DNA from: a virus
Reading direction: 5' to 3' (one strand)
Virus genome (UHGV): UHGV-1449992
DNA length: 26,750 nt
The notes below the pieces were generated by a model. That model made no database searches. It was not told the DNA's origin and was given only the letters and a program-made list of their open reading frames with translations. A program made the position numbers and the translations under genes. Below are positions 1 to 26,741 of this stretch, piece by piece. Position 1 is the first letter of the stretch. Each line of letters begins with the position of its first letter.

Positions 1-1
1 G

Positions 2-103
2 CACCATGAATCAACAAAGCAGCGCATCGACAAGCGCGGCACCGTGATCGGCTGCGATGAAAACGGGATGCCACTGGACCCGGCTTCTCATTGGTTTAAG
101 TGA
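2..103 (+). CDS. 3' end (33 codons) of an upstream ORF truncated by the window edge; product unknown (an HNH endonuclease often occupies this position before P27-family terminases, but this fragment alone does not prove it)
   Basis: Frame open from the window start to TGA at 101-103, translating ...HHESTKQRIDKRGTVIGCDENGMPLDPASHWFK*. Confidence 0.3.
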   Translation, partial: HHESTKQRIDKRGTVIGCDENGMPLDPASHWFK

Positions 104-285
104 TAACCATTATCAATACATCCCAAAAGTGATTGTCATTTGAAATCATTAGCATTCAATTGATATCAATTCTTATCTGAAGGGGAGGGGCGGGTCAAAA
201 GTTCAGAACCCTGAACCCAAATGACCGCCGCCCATCCTTTTTGTGCACAACCGCGAAATGAAAAGTTTTTTTCCGGGAGGTTCCG
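104..285. promoter_or_regulatory. Non-coding leader upstream of the small terminase gene; candidate cos/packaging-recognition region with nested dyad symmetry
   Basis: AT-rich stretch with the perfect 14-bp palindrome AATTGATATCAATT and TGATA-N5-TATCA, followed at 187-233 by GGGGCGGGTC..GTTCAG-AACC-CTGAAC..GACCGCCGCCC, a G-rich two-fold symmetric element. The six-frame ORFs here are short and overlapping. Confidence 0.3.
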
Positions 286-750
286 ATGGCAGGACGACGC
301 CCGAAACCGACCCACCTCAAAGTGGTCTCCGGCAACCCGGGCAAACGTAAACTCAACGATAAAGAACCGAGTCCGGCGCGAGAAATTCCAAGCCCGCCGG
401 CGCACCTGACCGACTGGGGAAAGGTTGCCTGGGGAAGGTTGACTGTTCTCCTTGACGGGATGGGGGTGTTGACAGTTGCCGACACCTTAGCCCTTGAACG
501 GCTATGCGATATTTACGCTGATATTCTTCAGTTGCGCGACACCATCGCAGTAGAGGGAAGAACCTATACCGTCCAGACCGAGGGTGGTTTTCTTATCAAA
601 GCTAACCCGGCCGTTTCGATGTTGGCCGATGCCGACCGCCGTTTTAAAAGTTACCTGGTTGAATTCGGTCTGACGCCAGCGGCAAGGACGAAGGTGAAAG
701 TGAATGGCGAAGACCCCGAAGAGGACACGCTCGACAAGTTCTTCGGTTGA
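286..750 (+). CDS. Terminase small subunit, P27 family
   Basis: 154-aa ORF MAGRRPKPTHLKVVSGNPGKRKL... recognised as a phage P27-family small terminase; sits directly upstream of and overlapping the large terminase. Confidence 0.85.
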   Translation: MAGRRPKPTHLKVVSGNPGKRKLNDKEPSPAREIPSPPAHLTDWGKVAWGRLTVLLDGMGVLTVADTLALERLCDIYADILQLRDTIAVEGRTYTVQTEGGFLIKANPAVSMLADADRRFKSYLVEFGLTPAARTKVKVNGEDPEEDTLDKFFG

Positions 751-9010: not shown

Positions 9011-9154
9011 ATACCCAAATTTCACCGCGCATCTCACGCGCACTTCACACAGAACCTTTCAGGATGAGCCTTGAGGATACCGGCTGGCTGTCGGTGCCTT
9101 TCTGTGGGCCGGATTCCTGTGAGACAAGGTTCATCACTAAAAGGTAATACCGAT

Positions 9155-9910
9155 ATGTCTAACATTGTCCCCATGAATTATGATGACCATTCATTCCCTT
9201 TTGCTTCTGATTGCTGGTTTAATGCCACAGTTGCTGCAAAGCATCACAGGAAGAGAGTGAAGAACTGGACAATTCTGGAGTCAACAAGGGATTACGTTGT
9301 CGAGTTGGCGCAAGAGCTTGATATTGAACCATTCAATTCTAAAGGGCAGATTTCTACCCTTTTAATTAGGATTGAGAAAGGCCGTTATGGCGGCACATGG
9401 ATGCACCCAGAGTTGGCCGTTGAGTTCGCCCGTTGGTTGTCAGTCAAATTTGCCCGCGCCTGCGACCGCCACATTAAAAATTTGCTGCTGAGTAAAAATT
9501 TTCAGCTCACTGAAGATCAGATTGTCGGCCTCATGGTCTGCCAGCAACCCAGTTCCTGGGAAAAAAGGTTTAAAGACCCGTTCTACCAGGCACTGTCGAA
9601 AATGTCCGGCATTCCTTATTTTGGTCATGTCGGCGGATGTCCGGCGTTGTTCGGTCAGATCACCGCTCGCTGGGTCTACGGTGTAGCACTTCCTGATTAT
9701 GTCTATCAGGCAGCTAAACAGGCAGCCGGCAACAGCAAGGAGAAGATTCATCAGCATCTTAAGCCGGATGCGCTGGAGAAGGTCGAGCAGCAACTGATCG
9801 CCGTCACAAACATTGCCAGTTGCAGCATTGACCAGAAGGACTTTGAGGCCCGTTGCATGGCTGCCTTTCCTGTCAAAGGGCAGATGAAGCTGCTGTATGC
9901 GGCGGCATAA
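9155..9910 (+). CDS. KilA-N domain protein (N-terminal KilA-N DNA-binding domain; C-terminal region possibly P63C-like); accessory gene
   Basis: ATG 9155 preceded by AAGGTAA. N-terminus ...FNATVAAKHHRKRVKNWTILESTRDYVVELAQ...RIEKGRYGGTWMHPELAVEFARWLS has the hallmarks of KilA-N; not a structural gene. Confidence 0.65.
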   Translation: MSNIVPMNYDDHSFPFASDCWFNATVAAKHHRKRVKNWTILESTRDYVVELAQELDIEPFNSKGQISTLLIRIEKGRYGGTWMHPELAVEFARWLSVKFARACDRHIKNLLLSKNFQLTEDQIVGLMVCQQPSSWEKRFKDPFYQALSKMSGIPYFGHVGGCPALFGQITARWVYGVALPDYVYQAAKQAAGNSKEKIHQHLKPDALEKVEQQLIAVTNIASCSIDQKDFEARCMAAFPVKGQMKLLYAAA

Positions 9911-18972: not shown

Positions 18973-19300
18973 CGCCTTTTTTGGAGCAAAAAACATGGCC
19001 TTTAACCCGGAGCTGGGGAGCACGTCTCCCGCTGTTCTGCTCGATAACGCCGAGCGCCTGGATAAGCTAGTGAATGGTGATGTGCTGACCGAACCGGACC
19101 GCGCGGGCGTTGATCTGGATACTTGGCGCGGAATGATGGCGAAAAACGATGAGGTTAGGAAAAACCTGATCCCATTGAGTAAGCAATACATGACGATTGA
19201 GGCGGCGCAGGCTGATATCGCGAATATTCCAGAGGGGTCAACGACCTATGTGAGAAGCCCAGGCAATATAGCCCTGGCATTTGAAGTTATTAATAATGGG
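18947..19300. repeat. Left arm of an inverted repeat (leader plus 5' roughly 300 nt of the tail fibre gene)
   Basis: Leader 18947-18997 is identical to the reverse complement of 26692-26741 apart from a 1-nt A-run indel; the coding part is about 80% identical at nucleotide level. Confidence 0.8.
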
Positions 19301-22300
19301 GGAGTGCTTGAACCTACATGGCGAGCAATGCCGTCGCAGGCTTATGTAGATTTTACTTTATCCAGCGCGGGACAACTGCCTTCAGCGATAATGACCCGTG
19401 ACGAAATATACGCTTCGGTCGAGAGATACGGGCAGTGGACTCGTACTGATACCAACGGATGGGCTGTCGGAGTCAAATCCAGTGGTAAGCCAGTGAACAG
19501 CCTGGCGCTGTGGCTGAATAACCTTTCTGAAATCAGCACGCTTTCTGTTTCTGTTTATCACCGCACTGTTGACGGTTTTTCAGTTCTGCCGGGCGCCGCT
19601 ACAGACAAGCTAATGAGTAGCCAGTCGGTCGCATCTGAAGACGTAGCGATAACTCAAGCACTGGCGCAAGGGTATCAGTTAGTCAGGCTCACCGTGCCTG
19701 ATGTACTGCTTAAATCTGATGAAATCATTCTGTTCGTCGTTAAAGCGCTCGATGCTTCAGGCGCTCCAGTTTATCTGGGGTGTGGCCGGGCGCCGGTTGA
19801 ATCAGGACAGGTTTCTGATTTAAATAACTCTCTGGGCGGTTTCTGGCTTGATGTCGCCCAGACAGCATGGAAGACAGTTACCTCATCTGACAGTCTGTAC
19901 CGGCTGGCTTACAGGGTCGGCTATTTCAGTACGGCAGCCAATAATTACTCGGCCTTTGCTCTCTCCCGTAGTGTTGTGCAGGAGGTTGTGGGAAACAGCT
20001 CAAATTATGCGACGGGCACGACCTTGTCAGGGCGATTTTATGGCTGGGCACTTGGTTTCAAATCTGTGCCAGGGGCGTTCGATATGATCACCCTTTACCA
20101 TAACAACCTCGATGCGGTGGCATATATTGATTACAGGATTGTTCTGCGCGAATTGACTTACGGTACTGCTGCGCAGCCTCTCGGCACTATCGCAACGGAC
20201 AGAGAGGTATTCTCATCACGTAAACTTCCACCGCCGCAGGGGAATAGCCTTTTCACCGCTGTTGATTACCCAGTTCCTGAACTTGTGGTACCCGCAGGAT
20301 ATTTTGCTGCAATAGAACTGCACCCGCTGCAGTGGAACGGCGATACGGCGGACATGGGATGCCAGGCTCATAACTATGCAGGGGAGACATTGCCAACCGA
20401 TATTGGCAGAGGCTATTTTGTCAATCGTAATGATAACGTATGGCGCGTAATATCAGATTCTACTAATGGACTCGCGTATGCACTTGCTCTTGCCGAGTGG
20501 GGAGGCATCCCTCAGGGGGTTGAAAAAGCACAGGGTGAAATCTCGACGCTGAATTCACTAGTTGTTCAGACCAGCCAGACCGTTGCGGAAATGAATACCT
20601 ATGAGATGGAAACGTCTTTTGAAAAAGCATCAGATAATCTTCAGTGGTCCTATGCATCTATGGTTGAATCTGCTCGATTCTGGCGGTGGGCGGTGCCAGT
20701 TTCTGCAGAAGCATCTGAGTTAAAATCCATCGCCATGTGGCTTGATGGCGTATCTCTTAATACCATTCTTCAATGCGACGTTTATTTCCGGCTGACATCA
20801 AACCAGACCAATACATCGGGACCGGGAGCTGTATCTGGTGACATTCTGGCCTTGACAGCAAATGTCACGCCGTTGCCAGCTAATACAGCGATGACAAAAA
20901 TCACGCTCCCGGTAGACCGTCTGACGGTACCGGCTGGTTATTTCCCGATCGTGGCTGTGACCGCATATTACAGTGCTGGCGTGAGCGGAAATCTGGGGTC
21001 AGGCTCGAAATCCTACAGCGCTGGTGATAATCCGGCTACGTACCTCAAGGGCTGGTACCAACGTTTTGACCGCACCGGTTGGCAGACTATCCCTGCGGGG
21101 ACATATGCCGCTGTCGCTGTCAGTGCTGTACTTGTCACCGCTCAGGATCTGCAGGAGAAAATTGCGTCTCTTGAATCCGGTTCTGATGTAACCGCCGATT
21201 ATTCCGGGGACAGCATCGATCGCTATGCACCGCAGGTAGCGGCTACTGGATTAACAGCCGTCATTACTGGTAACGCCATTCTCCGCGGGTCAGCAAAACC
21301 TATATCGGGGACGCTGACATTTGATGCGACAACGGTTGGTAGCACGACTGTCGCCAGCAGTCTTGTGCAGGCATCAGCGGCAGCACAATGGCCATCTAAC
21401 CCTAATGCCTGGTTGGGCGAGAAGCGCATCAGCGCAGTGACCGTAACCAATACTGCAACGAGCACACCGTTAACACCAGGGATGCACTATAACGTTGACA
21501 GCTACGGCGGGAAGCTGAGAGGACTGACGGCAACCACCTACGCTGTCAGTGTGACGTTTACGTACACGCGCGAGCGTTACGACCTGATTCAGATTGACCC
21601 GACGTCACTCGCACTGTCAGTGAAAAAAGGGATGGAACGGGCATTTGACGTTCAGGAATATCGTCCCGCGCCTGATGCCGGAAAAGTCGCGCTTTATTAC
21701 GTTCTGGTCGCCGGAAGCACGCTCGAATTCGATCCGGTTCACCGTTATGTAGACCTTGGCGGCGAGATGCTGGATGGCAAGGATTATGGCTTGCTGCGGC
21801 AGCACAACCGGCGCTTCCTTCAGAAAACGCTGGCGCGCCTGAATCGTGGTCAGGCGATTACGCTGGTAGGGCACGGAGACTCAATCACCGCAGTGTCTAA
21901 TATCAACAGCCCGGCGACGACACCGAACGGAACAACGCGTGACCTGCAGAGGTTTTTGCAGGGAGGCTATGGCAGCGACACACTGACGAACTTGTATCCC
22001 GCGCAGGACTGGGGGGATGGCGGTGGTGCTGTTCATGTCAGTATCGGCTGGAACCGGGTGCTGAAGAAGCATTTTGAAGATGTTTACGGGTCAGAAGTGA
22101 CGTATTACAACTTCGGAATGTCGGGGACGACCTCGGCATCTGGTGCGGGTTCAGACCGTCTCGGCGCGATTACCGCGCTTTCACCGCACCTGACGGTTGT
22201 CGGGTTCGGTATGAACGATAACGCGGGAAGTACGCTGTACGGAAACCTGATGACCATCATCAGCACGCTGAAAGCTGCGGGTTCTGAGGTTGTTCTGATG

Positions 22301-22555
22301 CCGGTGCCGCGCACGTCAAATACCGAAGACGGACGCTATACCCAGGACCAGACCCGGTATATGAACCGGCAGATATACAGAGCCGCGATTGACGGAGGCG
22401 CAGCATACGCACCGGCGGACTGGCTGACGGACGACAACAGCAAGGGAGGCATGGGCATTGCCACCACCTCTCTTACTGGCTCAGACCTGCGCAACCATCC
22501 GGGCGGATACGAAATGAGCATCTACGGAAAGGCGCTGGTTAATGTGTTCTGCTGA
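18995..22555 (+). CDS. Tail fibre/spike protein A: conserved N-terminal anchor domain, central body, C-terminal SGNH/GDSL-type hydrolase (esterase) domain
   Basis: 1186-aa ORF with GGAG ribosome-binding site. C-terminal motifs LVGHGDSITAV (GDS block), VVGFGMNDNAG (GxND block) and SDLRNHPGG (Asp/His block) are in SGNH order. Confidence 0.8.
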   Translation: MAFNPELGSTSPAVLLDNAERLDKLVNGDVLTEPDRAGVDLDTWRGMMAKNDEVRKNLIPLSKQYMTIEAAQADIANIPEGSTTYVRSPGNIALAFEVINNGGVLEPTWRAMPSQAYVDFTLSSAGQLPSAIMTRDEIYASVERYGQWTRTDTNGWAVGVKSSGKPVNSLALWLNNLSEISTLSVSVYHRTVDGFSVLPGAATDKLMSSQSVASEDVAITQALAQGYQLVRLTVPDVLLKSDEIILFVVKALDASGAPVYLGCGRAPVESGQVSDLNNSLGGFWLDVAQTAWKTVTSSDSLYRLAYRVGYFSTAANNYSAFALSRSVVQEVVGNSSNYATGTTLSGRFYGWALGFKSVPGAFDMITLYHNNLDAVAYIDYRIVLRELTYGTAAQPLGTIATDREVFSSRKLPPPQGNSLFTAVDYPVPELVVPAGYFAAIELHPLQWNGDTADMGCQAHNYAGETLPTDIGRGYFVNRNDNVWRVISDSTNGLAYALALAEWGGIPQGVEKAQGEISTLNSLVVQTSQTVAEMNTYEMETSFEKASDNLQWSYASMVESARFWRWAVPVSAEASELKSIAMWLDGVSLNTILQCDVYFRLTSNQTNTSGPGAVSGDILALTANVTPLPANTAMTKITLPVDRLTVPAGYFPIVAVTAYYSAGVSGNLGSGSKSYSAGDNPATYLKGWYQRFDRTGWQTIPAGTYAAVAVSAVLVTAQDLQEKIASLESGSDVTADYSGDSIDRYAPQVAATGLTAVITGNAILRGSAKPISGTLTFDATTVGSTTVASSLVQASAAAQWPSNPNAWLGEKRISAVTVTNTATSTPLTPGMHYNVDSYGGKLRGLTATTYAVSVTFTYTRERYDLIQIDPTSLALSVKKGMERAFDVQEYRPAPDAGKVALYYVLVAGSTLEFDPVHRYVDLGGEMLDGKDYGLLRQHNRRFLQKTLARLNRGQAITLVGHGDSITAVSNINSPATTPNGTTRDLQRFLQGGYGSDTLTNLYPAQDWGDGGGAVHVSIGWNRVLKKHFEDVYGSEVTYYNFGMSGTTSASGAGSDRLGAITALSPHLTVVGFGMNDNAGSTLYGNLMTIISTLKAAGSEVVLMPVPRTSNTEDGRYTQDQTRYMNRQIYRAAIDGGAAYAPADWLTDDNSKGGMGIATTSLTGSDLRNHPGGYEMSIYGKALVNVFC

Positions 22556-22614: not shown

Positions 22615-25600
22615 TTAAAGACACGCTTTCCAGCAGTACAGACCTCCGTGATCGTATGTCGATGCGCCGTTACCCAGACCTTCATACAAATCGGAACGGT
22701 CAAAGGAAAGCATAAAAAGCTCCGTTTCATCTCCATTAGTGAACGGGACCAGCGTGCACCATGGCCCCGTTGTGTTCGGAGCCAGATACACATCCTGCAC
22801 AAATTCCCCCAGGAAGGTCAGACCTGCCTCATACTTGCGCAGATGCAGTCGGTTGGCCGTTCCTCCGCTTGTCAGGTAGGTTGTCTCGCCGAAATGAACG
22901 AACTGATTCCCGGTATCGCGCACGCCAGCAGGGACTTCTGCCGTCGTATATTCCGGCACAATACCGTCGTACAGCGTCGGGCTCCGGAAGGTTTTGCATC
23001 CACTGGAGATGGTGTTTCCCGTCATCACCCACTGGCTGCTCGACGTTTCATAGTAGAAATCAATATCCTCCACGTAGCTTGCCCCGATCCCGAAAAAACT
23101 GCCGTTGGCGTTCTTCAGTTGCACGGAGTTTCTGACGATGATCACGCCGCCCTGCAGCAAGTCCTGTTTCGTCTCAAAGTACAGTTTTGGTCGATTGTTA
23201 TCGGCCAGCCCTTTCCCCTGATAGTCCATACCGCAAGAGATGCCCTTCCAGCTCTGACTGTTCCGGTCATACACCGCCTTGATACTGTCATCACCCAGCA
23301 CGACATCCTCATCGGTTCCGTCAGTCCGAACCTGGAAAATCGCGCCCACCATCTGCACTTCACCGCTGTTGAAGTTGATACGGACTATCTGAGTGTACAG
23401 GTCGGAGATAGTGGTCCCTGTTCCCTCAACGAGAAAATAAAGCCAGTTACCGCGCTGAATAAACGTCCCGTCTTCATAGGTCAGAAAGCGAATGGAGACG
23501 GAATTCGCCCCGCTGGCAATTCGGTTTGAAAAACCACTAAAGACAGCAATATCACTGGCCGAATATGCATCCGTTTGTGCGAACACGTACGTTTTCCACG
23601 TGTCCAGGTATTCCAGCCTGCGGGCATCAAAGATGGCATAGTGCTCATAGCGGCCAATCCATTTCCACGTCCCGTCAGCGTTCACTTTTTTTAGCAGCAG
23701 TGACACCCCGGTATTCTGCACCTGAAGCACTGCGCCGGTCATATCCGAACCGGTGAACGTGGTGGTATCAAGCAGACTCCCTGCGGCGTAGATTTCACAG
23801 ATAACCTGGCTGTTCGAGACGCGGACCGAAACACTGTTCTGCTGGTCAACATCCGCGAACATTATCCCCATCGTGGCATTGCCTGCCAGCCTGTCGATCG
23901 CGATCTCACTGGTTGCAAAGGGCATATAGCGATCCGCGAACATCACCACCCGGCCATTTGCTGTCGGGTTACGGAAAGAGACCTTTCCTGCTGACCAGGA
24001 ATAAGCAAACACATTCCCGGCGGTGATATCGTAAATATTGCTCTGCAGATTCCAGGGATTGTTTTCCAGGTCCATAAAAGAGAGCATGAACGAGTCAGCG
24101 GCATTGTAAAAATCGCGACGCGCCCACTGCTTAGTGAAAGTGTATTCCAGAGGGTTGCTGAAACTGTCGAAGTCAGGCGTCTTTTCAGGCAGCCCGGATA
24201 AATCGACATGGTAAGGCGCGTTAAAAACTTTTGCTTTTACCTGACTGCTCCGCGAGGACTGCTCAATCATGGCGGATACGTCATTGAATCTGGCGACCTG
24301 ATTGGAATAAATCTTCCTGACGGCGTATACGGGATCGGTTGTTTTTCTGACGCGCACCGCAACGTAACCGTCCTGTGTGGCCACTCCGCGATACGTTGCC
24401 GTCACATATCCGCCGCCCGATTTGAAGGTGAAGAGGTCCGACACCCACCCCTTGTCCGCGTCACATTGCATGATATAGGCGATAAGTTCTCCGACGGTGG
24501 CGGAGCCGTACTGCCCGTACATCTCGACAGAGTCGCCTTTTCGCACCGGGATGTAATACATCCGCCAGACACTGTAAGCAGAGCCGGAGACGATATTACC
24601 GCCGCTGTACATTACTGAGTTATCAGCAATGACTGATGCCACGCTGGTATAATCGATGGTTTTTACCGGCCCTCTGAGGTCTGATGCAAAAGCTTTATCC
24701 TGAGACGTCCGTGTTATGGTTGCCGCGGGTGTGGTGACGCGTACGCGCACGTAAACGAAACCATCCTGGGTTGCCACGCCGGCCATTACGCCGTTACTGG
24801 TGACACCCGGTGATGTGTAAGTGGCAAGATTAGCCACCACCGCCATTGCCGCATCCAGCTGAATGATATAAGCAATAACTTCGCCTGCCGTGCCGGAGCC
24901 GATTTGCCCGAAATAGCGCACGATATCCCCCGCGCGAACAGGAACATACGCTGCTTTCCAGTTCTCACCTGCGGTGTCAGAAATCATTCCGCCTGAGTAT
25001 ATAACCCGCCCCGTGATAGTGTATGTATCCGGTGCACTGGTCACGTCCAGGGTTGTTCTGTTAGCCGCAGCAATATCGGCCGGGTTCATTACAGCGTATA
25101 CGTTGCCGGGCAGGGAAAACAGTTGAGTGGTCTTTGTAATGGTTGCTGCCGGATCAGTCACACGCACCCGGACATAAACAAAACCATCCTGTGTGGCGAC
25201 ACCAGTCATAACACCAGCGCTGGACGAACCGGGCGAAGTATAGGTGGCGAGTGGCGCCACAAATTTCATCGCACTGTCGAGCTGGATGATATAAGCCAGT
25301 ACCTGGCCCGAAGTGCCGGAGCCGATTTGGCCGTGATACTGAATAACCTCTCCTGCTTTCACGGGCAGATAAGCTGCTTTCCAGCTATCTCCTGCGTTGT
25401 CCACCACCGAACCATCCGCTGACATGACACGCCCGATAATATATGTGGTGGTTGAAGCATTAGTGACATCCGTAGTCACGCGGTTGGCCGCATTCACAGA
25501 CGTTACAGTTTTGACGCCGAATACATCTGCGCCGGGTGTGAACCGCTCTCTGCTCTGATAAATCGCCGCTTCCGGCGTGGTCACCCGCACACGGAAGTAA

Positions 25601-26694
25601 GCGAAACCGTCCTGGGTTGCCACGCCCGATAAAACACCTGTCTTTTGGACTCCTTCCGACGAATAAGTCACCAGATTCCCCACCACATTAAGGCTGGTGT
25701 CGAGCTGAATTATGTACGCCATCAGCTCGCCGGGAATAGCGCTACCAATCTCACCGTGATATTCGAGAGCATCCCCCTTTTTTACGGGAACGTAAGCAGC
25801 ACGCCATGACTCCCCGGCGGAATCTGTGCGGGTACCATCGGCATAAATCACCCGCCCGATCACCCATGCAGTACTTTGAGATGAGGTAATATCAACAAGC
25901 GGTTTATTCGCCAGTACGTTCTGATAACTGGCATAGCTTGCTACCCCTCCGGCGGCATCAATATCTGCCTCCACCAGAATTGTTTTTTTGCGCTGCGTCA
26001 GGGTGAATTCTGCCGTATCCCTCACCCGGACGTAAATATACCCGTCCTGAGTCGCAACTGCTGACAGAGTGGCTTTATCCGTTACGTTCCCGGTTGATGT
26101 CCACTCAGCCAGAGATGCCACGAATGCTTTGTTGGCGTCCAGCTGGATAAGATACGCTATCTGTTCGCCAGCAGTGTTAGAGCCCACTGTTCCGCTATAG
26201 GTGACGCTCTCGCCCGCCCTGACTTTCAGATACCAGGCATTCCATGTAGGACTCGATGCAGTAGAGCCATCAGCATATATCACCAGTCCGGCAACAATTT
26301 CCGCATCGCTTTTAGCATCCCCTGTTATGTAGCCCGTTTTCAGAGCGCTCATCGACGGCATAGCTCTGCCGGTAGCTGCCAGTGTGCCACCGTTATTAAT
26401 GTACTCATCCGCCAGTGTGCCGCCATCAGGGCTGCGTACATAGGTTGTTGAGCCATCCGGGATGTTTGCAATATCAGCCTGAGCCGCTTCAATCGTCATG
26501 TACTGCTTACTCAATGGCACAAGGTTCTGACGAATCTCGTCATTTTTCGCCATGAATCCGCGCCAGGTATCCAGATCAACACCCGCGCGATCAGGCACGG
26601 TGAAAGCGTCCGAATTCACCAGGTTATCCAGGCGCTCAGCGTTATCGCGCAGAACCGCCGGAGAAGCACTCCCCAGAGGAGGATTAAAGGCCAT
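22615..26694 (-). CDS. Tail fibre/spike protein B: same N-terminal anchor domain as protein A, five tandem copies of a roughly 140-aa domain, distinct roughly 570-aa C-terminal module
   Basis: Probable start at the ATG complementary to 26692-26694 (MAFNPPLGSASPAVL...), with the same leader as gene A; the six-frame ORF extends 10 codons further to 26724. First 110 aa are about 75% identical to protein A. Confidence 0.8.
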   Translation of the reverse strand: MAFNPPLGSASPAVLRDNAERLDNLVNSDAFTVPDRAGVDLDTWRGFMAKNDEIRQNLVPLSKQYMTIEAAQADIANIPDGSTTYVRSPDGGTLADEYINNGGTLAATGRAMPSMSALKTGYITGDAKSDAEIVAGLVIYADGSTASSPTWNAWYLKVRAGESVTYSGTVGSNTAGEQIAYLIQLDANKAFVASLAEWTSTGNVTDKATLSAVATQDGYIYVRVRDTAEFTLTQRKKTILVEADIDAAGGVASYASYQNVLANKPLVDITSSQSTAWVIGRVIYADGTRTDSAGESWRAAYVPVKKGDALEYHGEIGSAIPGELMAYIIQLDTSLNVVGNLVTYSSEGVQKTGVLSGVATQDGFAYFRVRVTTPEAAIYQSRERFTPGADVFGVKTVTSVNAANRVTTDVTNASTTTYIIGRVMSADGSVVDNAGDSWKAAYLPVKAGEVIQYHGQIGSGTSGQVLAYIIQLDSAMKFVAPLATYTSPGSSSAGVMTGVATQDGFVYVRVRVTDPAATITKTTQLFSLPGNVYAVMNPADIAAANRTTLDVTSAPDTYTITGRVIYSGGMISDTAGENWKAAYVPVRAGDIVRYFGQIGSGTAGEVIAYIIQLDAAMAVVANLATYTSPGVTSNGVMAGVATQDGFVYVRVRVTTPAATITRTSQDKAFASDLRGPVKTIDYTSVASVIADNSVMYSGGNIVSGSAYSVWRMYYIPVRKGDSVEMYGQYGSATVGELIAYIMQCDADKGWVSDLFTFKSGGGYVTATYRGVATQDGYVAVRVRKTTDPVYAVRKIYSNQVARFNDVSAMIEQSSRSSQVKAKVFNAPYHVDLSGLPEKTPDFDSFSNPLEYTFTKQWARRDFYNAADSFMLSFMDLENNPWNLQSNIYDITAGNVFAYSWSAGKVSFRNPTANGRVVMFADRYMPFATSEIAIDRLAGNATMGIMFADVDQQNSVSVRVSNSQVICEIYAAGSLLDTTTFTGSDMTGAVLQVQNTGVSLLLKKVNADGTWKWIGRYEHYAIFDARRLEYLDTWKTYVFAQTDAYSASDIAVFSGFSNRIASGANSVSIRFLTYEDGTFIQRGNWLYFLVEGTGTTISDLYTQIVRINFNSGEVQMVGAIFQVRTDGTDEDVVLGDDSIKAVYDRNSQSWKGISCGMDYQGKGLADNNRPKLYFETKQDLLQGGVIIVRNSVQLKNANGSFFGIGASYVEDIDFYYETSSSQWVMTGNTISSGCKTFRSPTLYDGIVPEYTTAEVPAGVRDTGNQFVHFGETTYLTSGGTANRLHLRKYEAGLTFLGEFVQDVYLAPNTTGPWCTLVPFTNGDETELFMLSFDRSDLYEGLGNGASTYDHGGLYCWKACL
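24325..26340 (-). repeat. Intragenic tandem repeat: five copies, period about 393-435 nt, each encoding a domain ending in the motif VATQDG(F/Y)xYxRVR(V/K)T
   Basis: Repeat-end codons map to about 26016, 25581, 25158, 24735 and 24342 on the minus strand; the DNA copies are recognisably similar (e.g. GTCACCCGCACACGGAAGTAAGCGAAACCGTCCTG versus GTGACGCGTACGCGCACGTAAACGAAACCATCCTG). Confidence 0.75.
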
Positions 26695-26741
26695 GTTTTT
26701 GCTCCAAAAAAGGCGTTCGCGCAAACGAGGGTTTGAGCGAA
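26390..26741. repeat. Right arm of the inverted repeat (leader plus 5' end of fibre gene B)
   Basis: Reverse complement matches 18947-19300 (identical leader, about 80% identical coding part). Confidence 0.8.
26716..26741. other. 26-bp hix/gix-like near-palindrome (right copy, inverted relative to 18947-18972)
   Basis: TTCGCGCAAACG-AG-GGTTTGAGCGAA is the exact reverse complement of the left copy. Confidence 0.45.

Follow-up and report, generated by a model that had tools for sequence, protein, structure and literature searches.

The leader between an HNH endonuclease gene and terS is very probably the cos site of an HK97-like temperate siphovirus. The window analyzed here is a stretch of 26,750 nucleotides from virus genome UHGV-1449992, and the site occupies positions 98 to 285. 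Judged from its sequence, it would work like HK97 cos. The virus is probably a prophage of the Klebsiella group, and the prophage could be defective. By homology to mapped ends, the bottom strand is predicted to be nicked at 225/226 and the top strand at 235/236. This would leave a 10-nt 3' cohesive end, 5'-CGCCGCCCAT-3' (226 to 235, plus strand). The site is an ordinary HK97-type cos site. It extends a known mechanism and is not a new one. The initial annotation had proposed a cos site in the leader upstream of terS, and the homology to mapped phage ends bears this out. All of the strings that it listed are present where it placed them.

The window begins within the final 33 codons of the HNH gene, which is of the HK97 gp74 type (3' end at 1 to 103, plus strand; stop codon TGA at 101 to 103). 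The translation, which ends in HHESTKQRIDKRGTVIGCDENGMPLDPASHWFK and the stop, matches the C terminus of an HNH protein from Klebsiella phage ST147-VIM1phi7.2. HK97 gp74 and the HNH protein of Pantoea phage AH07 are 72% and 74% identical to that protein, respectively. The leader is 182 nt long. Its G+C content is 27% at 104 to 180, 60% at 181 to 235, and 46% from there to the ATG, and that of the whole window is 52%. The next gene is terS (286 to 750, plus strand). It encodes a small terminase of the P27 family (Terminase_4, PF05119; Pfam E = 1.5e-24). Its Shine-Dalgarno sequence, GGGAGG (275 to 280, plus strand), is 5 nt before the ATG at 286. TerS has no BLASTP similarity to HK97 gp1, and gp1 has no Pfam hit. 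The TerS sequence had no match among solved structures. The best structural match of its predicted structure is HK97 TerS.

The large terminase gene, terL, is listed at 704 to 2440 on the plus strand. It encodes the Pfam TerL_ATPase and TerL_nuclease domains. TerL shares 30% identity with HK97 gp2 over 531 residues (E = 7e-66); its identity to AH07 TerL is 78%. The AH07 protein aligns only from residue 23 on (MDVTSG), so the ATG at 770, which is 20 nt past the terS stop codon, is probably the true start. The listed start at 704 overlaps terS by 47 nt. The gene order is HNH, terS, terL, portal, S78 protease, and HK97-fold capsid, with the tail genes thereafter. This block is the head module of an HK97-like siphovirus. 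The closest DNA matches are phages derived from Klebsiella prophages. A leader between a gp74-type HNH gene and terS, beside a large terminase related to gp2, is the gene context of an HK97-type 3' cos.

Other genes were observed farther along the window. Two large convergent genes (18995 to 22555, plus strand; 22615 to 26724, minus strand) encode proteins of 1,186 and 1,369 amino acids. They have a common N-terminal domain of ~120 amino acids (phrog_31290/9750/14987), which suggests that they are two alternative tail-fibre or tailspike proteins arranged tail to tail. The 1,186-aa protein ends in a GDSL/SGNH esterase domain. Pfam and PADLOC gave only weak hits for the 1,369-aa protein. The tail block also contains a gene for a KilA-N and P63C protein (9071 to 9910), flanked by the tail tube/chaperone region and the tape measure gene, and it has the look of a moron-type insertion.

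The nicks were placed by comparison with phages whose ends are mapped. Positions 100 to 290 were searched against phage records with sensitive blastn, and two alignments were decisive. Window 181 to 232 aligns with HK97 39676 to 39729, 3 bases from the right physical end of HK97 (39732). When the junctions are compared, the HK97 end falls at window 235, and the record ends in GAC CGCCGCCAAA. Base 1 of AH07 falls at window 236, and the alignment continues from there. With a slash at the top-strand cut, the HK97 junction reads ...CCCCAAATGAC CGCCGCCAAA/GTTTGAATTT..., that of the window reads ...ACCCAAATGAC CGCCGCCCAT/CCTTTTTGTG..., and that of AH07 reads ...CCTCCTGAC/CCTTTTTATG.... The placement draws on two independent phages, since HK97 has the left half of the window and AH07 has its right half. 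The HK97 ends were mapped experimentally and have 10-nt 3' overhangs (PMC9410871, PMC11331095). HK97 cleavage is numbered -1/+1 at the record ends, and T16, the C:G pair 21, and the A-tract at 24 to 29 agree with the record positions (PMC11331095, PMC9410871). The AH07 ends were set from reads by PAUSE and PhageTerm (PMC8567787).

The AH07 record stops right after GAC at its right end. A scan of IMG/VR with the TerS protein retrieved a contig (L067) that contains the last 60 and the first 60 nt of AH07 exactly, with exactly 10 nt, CGCCCGCCCC, in between. About 20 AH07-like contigs read the same at the junction. This decamer aligns to window 226 to 235 without gaps. End repair during library preparation removes a 3' overhang (PhageTerm paper), so the decamer missing from AH07 is best read as its cohesive end. 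The record end that carries the HK97 overhang was settled by geometry, by the PhageTerm description, and by the 10-nt gap of AH07. The linear record of Proteus phage Pm34, as linearised, breaks at GAC/CGCCCCCTTA, which is the predicted bottom-strand nick. A literature search found no paper on Pm34.

Several other records were considered and set aside. Four IMG/VR contigs end 35, 41, 70, and 126 nt 5' of terS. None of them ends exactly at +1, and they are uninformative as evidence for cos. The records of the mEp phages, HK446, and P7641 are linearised at or near the terS start codon and are likewise uninformative. Providencia phage PSTRCR_117lys (MW358929.1; L175/L176) was left out. In its circular record, ~40 nt of cos seem to be missing, beginning past the spacer and ending midway through the TerS core; this gap is probably an assembly artefact at cohesive ends.

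A pac site for headful packaging, or a region without any packaging role, would put the physical ends elsewhere; either is very improbable. Both halves are homologous to mapped cohesive ends. TerL is related to the enzymes of AH07 (78% identity), a phage with fixed ends, and of HK97 (gp2, 30%). Adjacency of the HNH gene and terS is said to be typical of HNH-dependent cos phages. The cos reading predicts a discontinuity in read coverage at 225 to 236, close to the 187 to 233 suggested by the initial annotation.

The packaged left end begins at 236. Its first 15 nt, CCTTTTTGTGCACAA (236 to 250, plus strand), were located from the AH07 start and the alignment. They contain a 10-bp perfect palindrome, TTGTGCACAA, at 241 to 250 (+6 to +15), on the stretch from the top-strand nick to the predicted TerS core. 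Close relatives keep its GTGCAC, and the AH07 type has ATGCAC there. The distance from the top-strand nick to the core is fixed at 15 nt in Enterobacterales.

The predicted TerS site lies at 251 to 272 on the plus strand. It consists of a core, CCGCGAAATG (+16 to +25), and an A/T tract, AAAAGTTTTTTT (+26 to +37), and it was assigned by conservation and by the HK97 offset. This site is downstream of the elements described in the initial annotation, which did not single it out. The core occurs once in the window. Positions 251 to 272 are near-invariant in 52 representatives that are mutually <85% identical, and the best-conserved block in this set is +11 to +37, GCACAACCGCGAAATGAAAAGTTTTTTT. The core is retained down to ~48 to 57% TerS identity. 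The HK97 TerS site has been mapped to +15 to +29 and consists of a C/G core and an A-tract (PMC11331095). The window has a conserved C/G core and an A/T tract at the same offset, where its own TerS would be expected to bind.

A scan with a TerS profile, with one genome per species, gave 77 loci. The core is at +16 in 63 of these, usually 35 nt before the ATG. The common plan of the 63 is a G-run, ~30 nt, (G/T/A)AC at the bottom-strand cut, C-N9 up to the top-strand cut, 14 to 15 nt, CCGCGAAATG, a T-tract, a ribosome-binding site, and terS. Its hosts range from Enterobacterales to Pseudomonas, Massilia, Snodgrassella, Gilliamella, and Phaeospirillum. Exceptions are a 14-nt spacing in some distant loci and a displaced GAC in loci of the Pseudomonas californiensis type. 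Three TerS groups have three different cores at one offset: CCGCGAAATG in the window, CCGCAGGTTAG in the mEp235/Pm34 type, and CTAACCCG with a T-tract in HK97. TerS of the mEp235/Pm34 type is 44% identical to that of the window. All three groups have the left half of cos in common. Serratia phage OS31 (L011) and a Pseudomonas lundensis contig (L107), which is nearly identical to OS31 there, contain ~80 extra nt with AATCATT-type repeats between the core and terS. In both, the core is 113 nt before the ATG and not 35.

The left half was compared in 76 distinct sequences from IMG/VR relatives, from Klebsiella, Serratia, and Salmonella phages, and from HK97-type coliphages. They align without gaps from about -50 to +50, with fixed spacing. 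The bases G188 to G190, G193, C204, A205, G223, A224, C225, C226, T238, T239, and A247 are invariant in 25 representatives that include HK97. The first conserved element is a G-run, GGGGAGGGGCGGG (182 to 194, plus strand), in which G188 to G190 and G193 are the invariant bases. It is kept in alpha-, beta-, and gammaproteobacterial loci. The second is the AAAAGTTCA box (197 to 205, plus strand), with C204 and A205 invariant. Its TTCA begins a fixed 21 nt before GAC. The 17-nt spacer from TTCA to GAC (206 to 222) varies freely in sequence and is constant in length. The third element is GAC (223 to 225, plus strand), directly 5' of the predicted bottom-strand nick; it is invariant together with C226. 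AC is present at this position in 119 of 129 distinct sequences. The overhang differs between lineages and reads CGCCGCCCAT, CGCCGCCAGT, CGCCCGCCCC, CTATCACCGT, CTAGCGCCCT, or CGACCGTAGT. Only its first C is fixed.

A mosaic joint was observed at ~178 to 181. Kp4866-6, ST899-OXA48phi17.2, and Salmonella phage SW-37 are 80 to 98% identical to the window from there rightward. To the left, they cannot be aligned to it by megablast. The point where the AT-rich block gives way to the G-run is read as a recombination boundary because the identity to these three phages ends there.

The initial annotation had described a G-rich symmetric element that overlaps this half and had likened it to the rotationally symmetric cosN of lambdoid phages. 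The element consists of GGGGCGGGTC (187 to 196), aaaa (197 to 200), GTTCAGAACCCTGAAC (201 to 216), ccaaat (217 to 222), and GACCGCCGCCC (223 to 233). A repeat search placed the outer arms at 184 to 193 and 228 to 237, with 90% complementarity. The single strand of 178 to 250 folds as RNA into a long hairpin (179 to 242) of -31.2 kcal/mol (z = -3.16; 1 of 200 shuffles was as good). It ranks 14th in stability among 5,336 sliding 73-nt windows. The nested symmetry of the window sequence is somewhat beyond chance, and to that extent the description stands. It is not conserved. No covariation was found in 25 relatives, in which 68.5% of cells pair compared with 68.6% in shuffles. The alignment consensus fold of these 25 sequences has -1.76 kcal/mol and no compensatory pair. 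The inner hairpin, GTTCAG-aacc-CTGAAC (201 to 216), pairs in 53% of cells across relatives. Its sequence, GTTCAGAACCCTGAAC, is peculiar to the window and one other contig and is absent from close relatives. Relatives contain GTTCAGAACCTCGAAC or CTTCAGAAGTTTGACC at its position.

The element is also off center. Its middle is at ~209/210, 16 to 26 nt left of the predicted nicks. Its right arm is GAC plus the overhang sequence, and the cuts fall in and beyond that arm. Around 230/231, only G230 and C231 are symmetric among the 8 positions each way. The comparison with a lambda-like symmetric cosN was rejected on these grounds: the nicks are off-center, their contexts are asymmetric, and the predicted overhang is 3'. 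In OS31, the G-run is kept and the overhang is not complementary to it. The complementarity between the G-run and the C-rich overhang is best read as a by-product, since each is conserved as sequence and their pairing is not conserved.

The same hairpin could serve transcription rather than packaging, by ending the HNH/late transcript either as a Rho-independent terminator or as some other RNA structure. The stability of the fold is consistent with this, and the base of the stem (GGAGGGGCGG and CCGCCCATCC, 184 to 193 and 228 to 237) is followed directly by TTTTT (238 to 242). A terminator scan makes no call there, and the loop is 34 nt long and contains the inner hairpin. The T-run itself is paired in the minimum-energy fold. 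Relatives do not keep a short-loop stem with a U-run: pairing in the 25 relatives is no better than in shuffles, HK97 and more distant relatives lack the T-run, and OS31 has the T-run without the complementarity. There is no Rfam match. No promoter-like site was found on the plus strand between the hairpin and terS, so the head genes must be transcribed through the leader. We consider a terminator improbable.

The AT-rich block (98 to 171) contains three phased, dyad-like copies of 14 nt at 98 to 111, 127 to 140, and 158 to 171, with spacings of 29 and 31. They belong to three units of ~30 bp, each of which starts with AAnTGAT. The first of them overlaps the stop codon of the HNH gene. The third, proximal copy is the perfect palindrome AATTGATATCAATT (158 to 171) named in the initial annotation, and its unit is homologous to the HNH 3' end and stop codon of one type of relative (L020). 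It is the only perfect palindrome of at least 14 bp in the 26.7-kb window. Shuffles of the whole window contain a mean of 1.66 such palindromes, and one is therefore expected somewhere; within the 182-nt region, local shuffling gives p ~0.013. In most relatives, its symmetry is incomplete (AAATGATATCGATT); the window owes its perfect palindrome to two substitutions, and a few others are also perfect.

It is unlikely that the block and palindrome (104 to 180) are an essential array of terminase or IHF binding sites, as had been proposed. The three copies are ~30 bp apart and would lie on the same face of the helix. A related dyad is found 5' of the G-run in many lineages, and the local p value of the palindrome also favors a role. 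However, relatives with 99% identical TerS and the same cos core (L008, L017, and L018) lack most of the block. Only the proximal copy is present in them, across the HNH stop codon, and there are no distal copies, since that stop codon is ~20 nt before the G-run. Relatives in general contain one to three copies. The distance from dyad to nick is not fixed (61 compared with 58 bp, by eye). No match to the IHF consensus WATCAANNNNTTR was found at 104 to 285; the window as a whole has just two, at 9311 and 13902. The same element is found beside unrelated TerS families, so TerS is unlikely to bind the dyad. In HK97, TerS binds downstream of the cut (PMC11331095). The block would appear to be an accessory part of cos.

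Many lineages, HK97 and an alphaproteobacterium among them, have the related dyad, AAATGAgAAcGATTaTCA, ~10 nt 5' of the G-run. In a longer form, AAATGA(G/T)AA-N-ATT(A/C)TCA, it is present at window 96 to 114 and 158 to 176, in contigs L044, L083, and L067, and in HK97, often over the HNH stop codon. It ranges from Enterobacterales to Phaeospirillum. It was compared with the 19-bp Fur box consensus GATAATGATAATCATTATC, which is itself AT-rich, in a post hoc test. Window 96 to 114 matches at 14 of 19 positions (shuffle p = 0.017). Under the same reservations, matches across lineages are 13 to 16 of 19, and several relatives reach 15 to 16.

These parts suggest how the site may work. We infer from the layout which protein reads which element and which nuclease cuts which strand. 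Replicated, concatemeric DNA would be cut with a 10-nt stagger, at 225/226 after GAC on the bottom strand and at 235/236 on the top strand. The ends would protrude 3'. The right genome end would carry 5'-CGCCGCCCAT-3', and the left one its complement. The chromosome as packaged would start at 236 (CCTTTTTGTG...) with terS as its first gene and end at 235 with the HNH gene last. The P27-family TerS may bind CCGCGAAATG and the A/T tract at 251 to 272 and set the register. It would hold TerL there, and the TerL nuclease and the gp74-type HNH protein would cut 15 and 25 bp upstream, always at these distances. Inside the overhang, the sequence would be free to vary. The left half, with the dyad element, the G-run (182 to 194), the AAAAGTTCA box (197 to 205), and the fixed 17-nt spacer, would enter the head last. 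At termination, the nuclease pair may recognise it or be positioned by it. Two different nucleases would be consistent with the asymmetric contexts of the nicks.

This scheme follows what is known of HK97. HK97 TerS binds 15 to 29 bp past the cut and reads the C:G pair 21 and the shape of the adjoining A-tract (PMC11331095, PMC9410871). It is thought to stall the motor and thereby to place the cos cleavage site in the TerL nuclease (PMC11331095, PMC9410871). Its HNH protein, gp74, enhances cleavage, and a different nuclease may act on each strand (PMC11331095, PMC9410871).

A broader reading is offered tentatively, and we consider it on balance doubtful. HNH-associated HK97-like cos sites may be asymmetric joints of two modules. 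The right module, with its core at +16, would track the TerS family. The left module, with the dyad, the G-run, and the AAAGTTCA box at a constant 21 nt from the bottom-strand nick, would track the conserved HNH protein. The left module would be an undescribed HNH/TerL recognition element, an analogue of lambda cosQ that ranges from alpha- to gammaproteobacteria, and the nicks would be set by distance from the bound proteins. If so, the halves would be exchangeable between phages with unrelated small terminases. Each half could also be conserved with its adjoining gene (terS on the right, HNH on the left) through physical linkage and not through matching of protein and DNA. Neither the two-module plan nor a P27-family core at the HK97 offset was found described in the searchable literature.

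Placement of cos at the base level defines the ends of the mature chromosome and its gene order, with terS first and the HNH gene last. It indicates packaging by cos and not by headful. It also gives the read pile-ups to expect on induction of the prophage. Generalised transduction is unlikely for a cos packager, and satellites or plasmids that carry cos can be captured. For the large P27 TerS family, it gives a testable prediction: the core CCGCGAAATG and a T-tract would lie 16 bp inside the left end, which is the offset in the HK97 TerS-DNA structure.

The site resembles lambda cos in its tripartite order of an upstream element, a nick site, and a downstream TerS site beside the terminase genes. 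Lambda cos is made up of cosQ, cosN, and cosB and has a 12-nt 5' overhang and an IHF site. The lambda cohesive end is G+C-rich and includes CGCCGCCC, as does the predicted end of the window. The window differs in its overhang, which by homology is predicted to be 10 nt and 3', of the opposite polarity and another length. It has no two-fold symmetry at or between the nicks and no IHF consensus in the leader. It also differs in having an HNH partner nuclease, and its TerS appears, from the sequence, to bind a single site and not an array of R repeats.

AH07 resembles the window most in the right half, which is 91% identical over 55 nt. TerS is 90% identical and TerL 78% identical. The offset from the cut to the ATG is equal, and the geometry, GAC, 10 nt, and then CCTTTTT, is the same. 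AH07 differs in the spacer of its left half and in its overhang (CGCCCGCCCC). It contains two dyad copies, whereas the window contains three.

HK97 cos has a 10-nt 3' overhang, is cut by the large terminase gp2 with the HNH protein gp74, and has the site of its TerS, gp1, at +15 to +29 (PMC11331095, PMC9410871). The window differs from it in the sequence of the right half (CCTTTTTGTGCACAACCGCGAAATG... in the window compared with GTTTGAATTTAACGCTAACCCG... in HK97) and in a TerS of another sequence family (PF05119). The last three bases of the overhang are CAT in the window and AAA in HK97, and HK97 has a small ORF between the HNH gene and cos. In both phages, cos lies between the HNH gene and terS, and the terS ATG is at +50 in HK97 and +51 in the window. 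The HNH proteins are ~72% identical and the TerL proteins 30% identical. The left halves are ~80% identical over 52 nt, with the G-run, the TCAAA-TTCA box, the 21-nt spacing, AAATGAC, and an overhang that starts with CGCCGCC. Past the cut, both have a C/G core and then an A/T tract at equal offsets.
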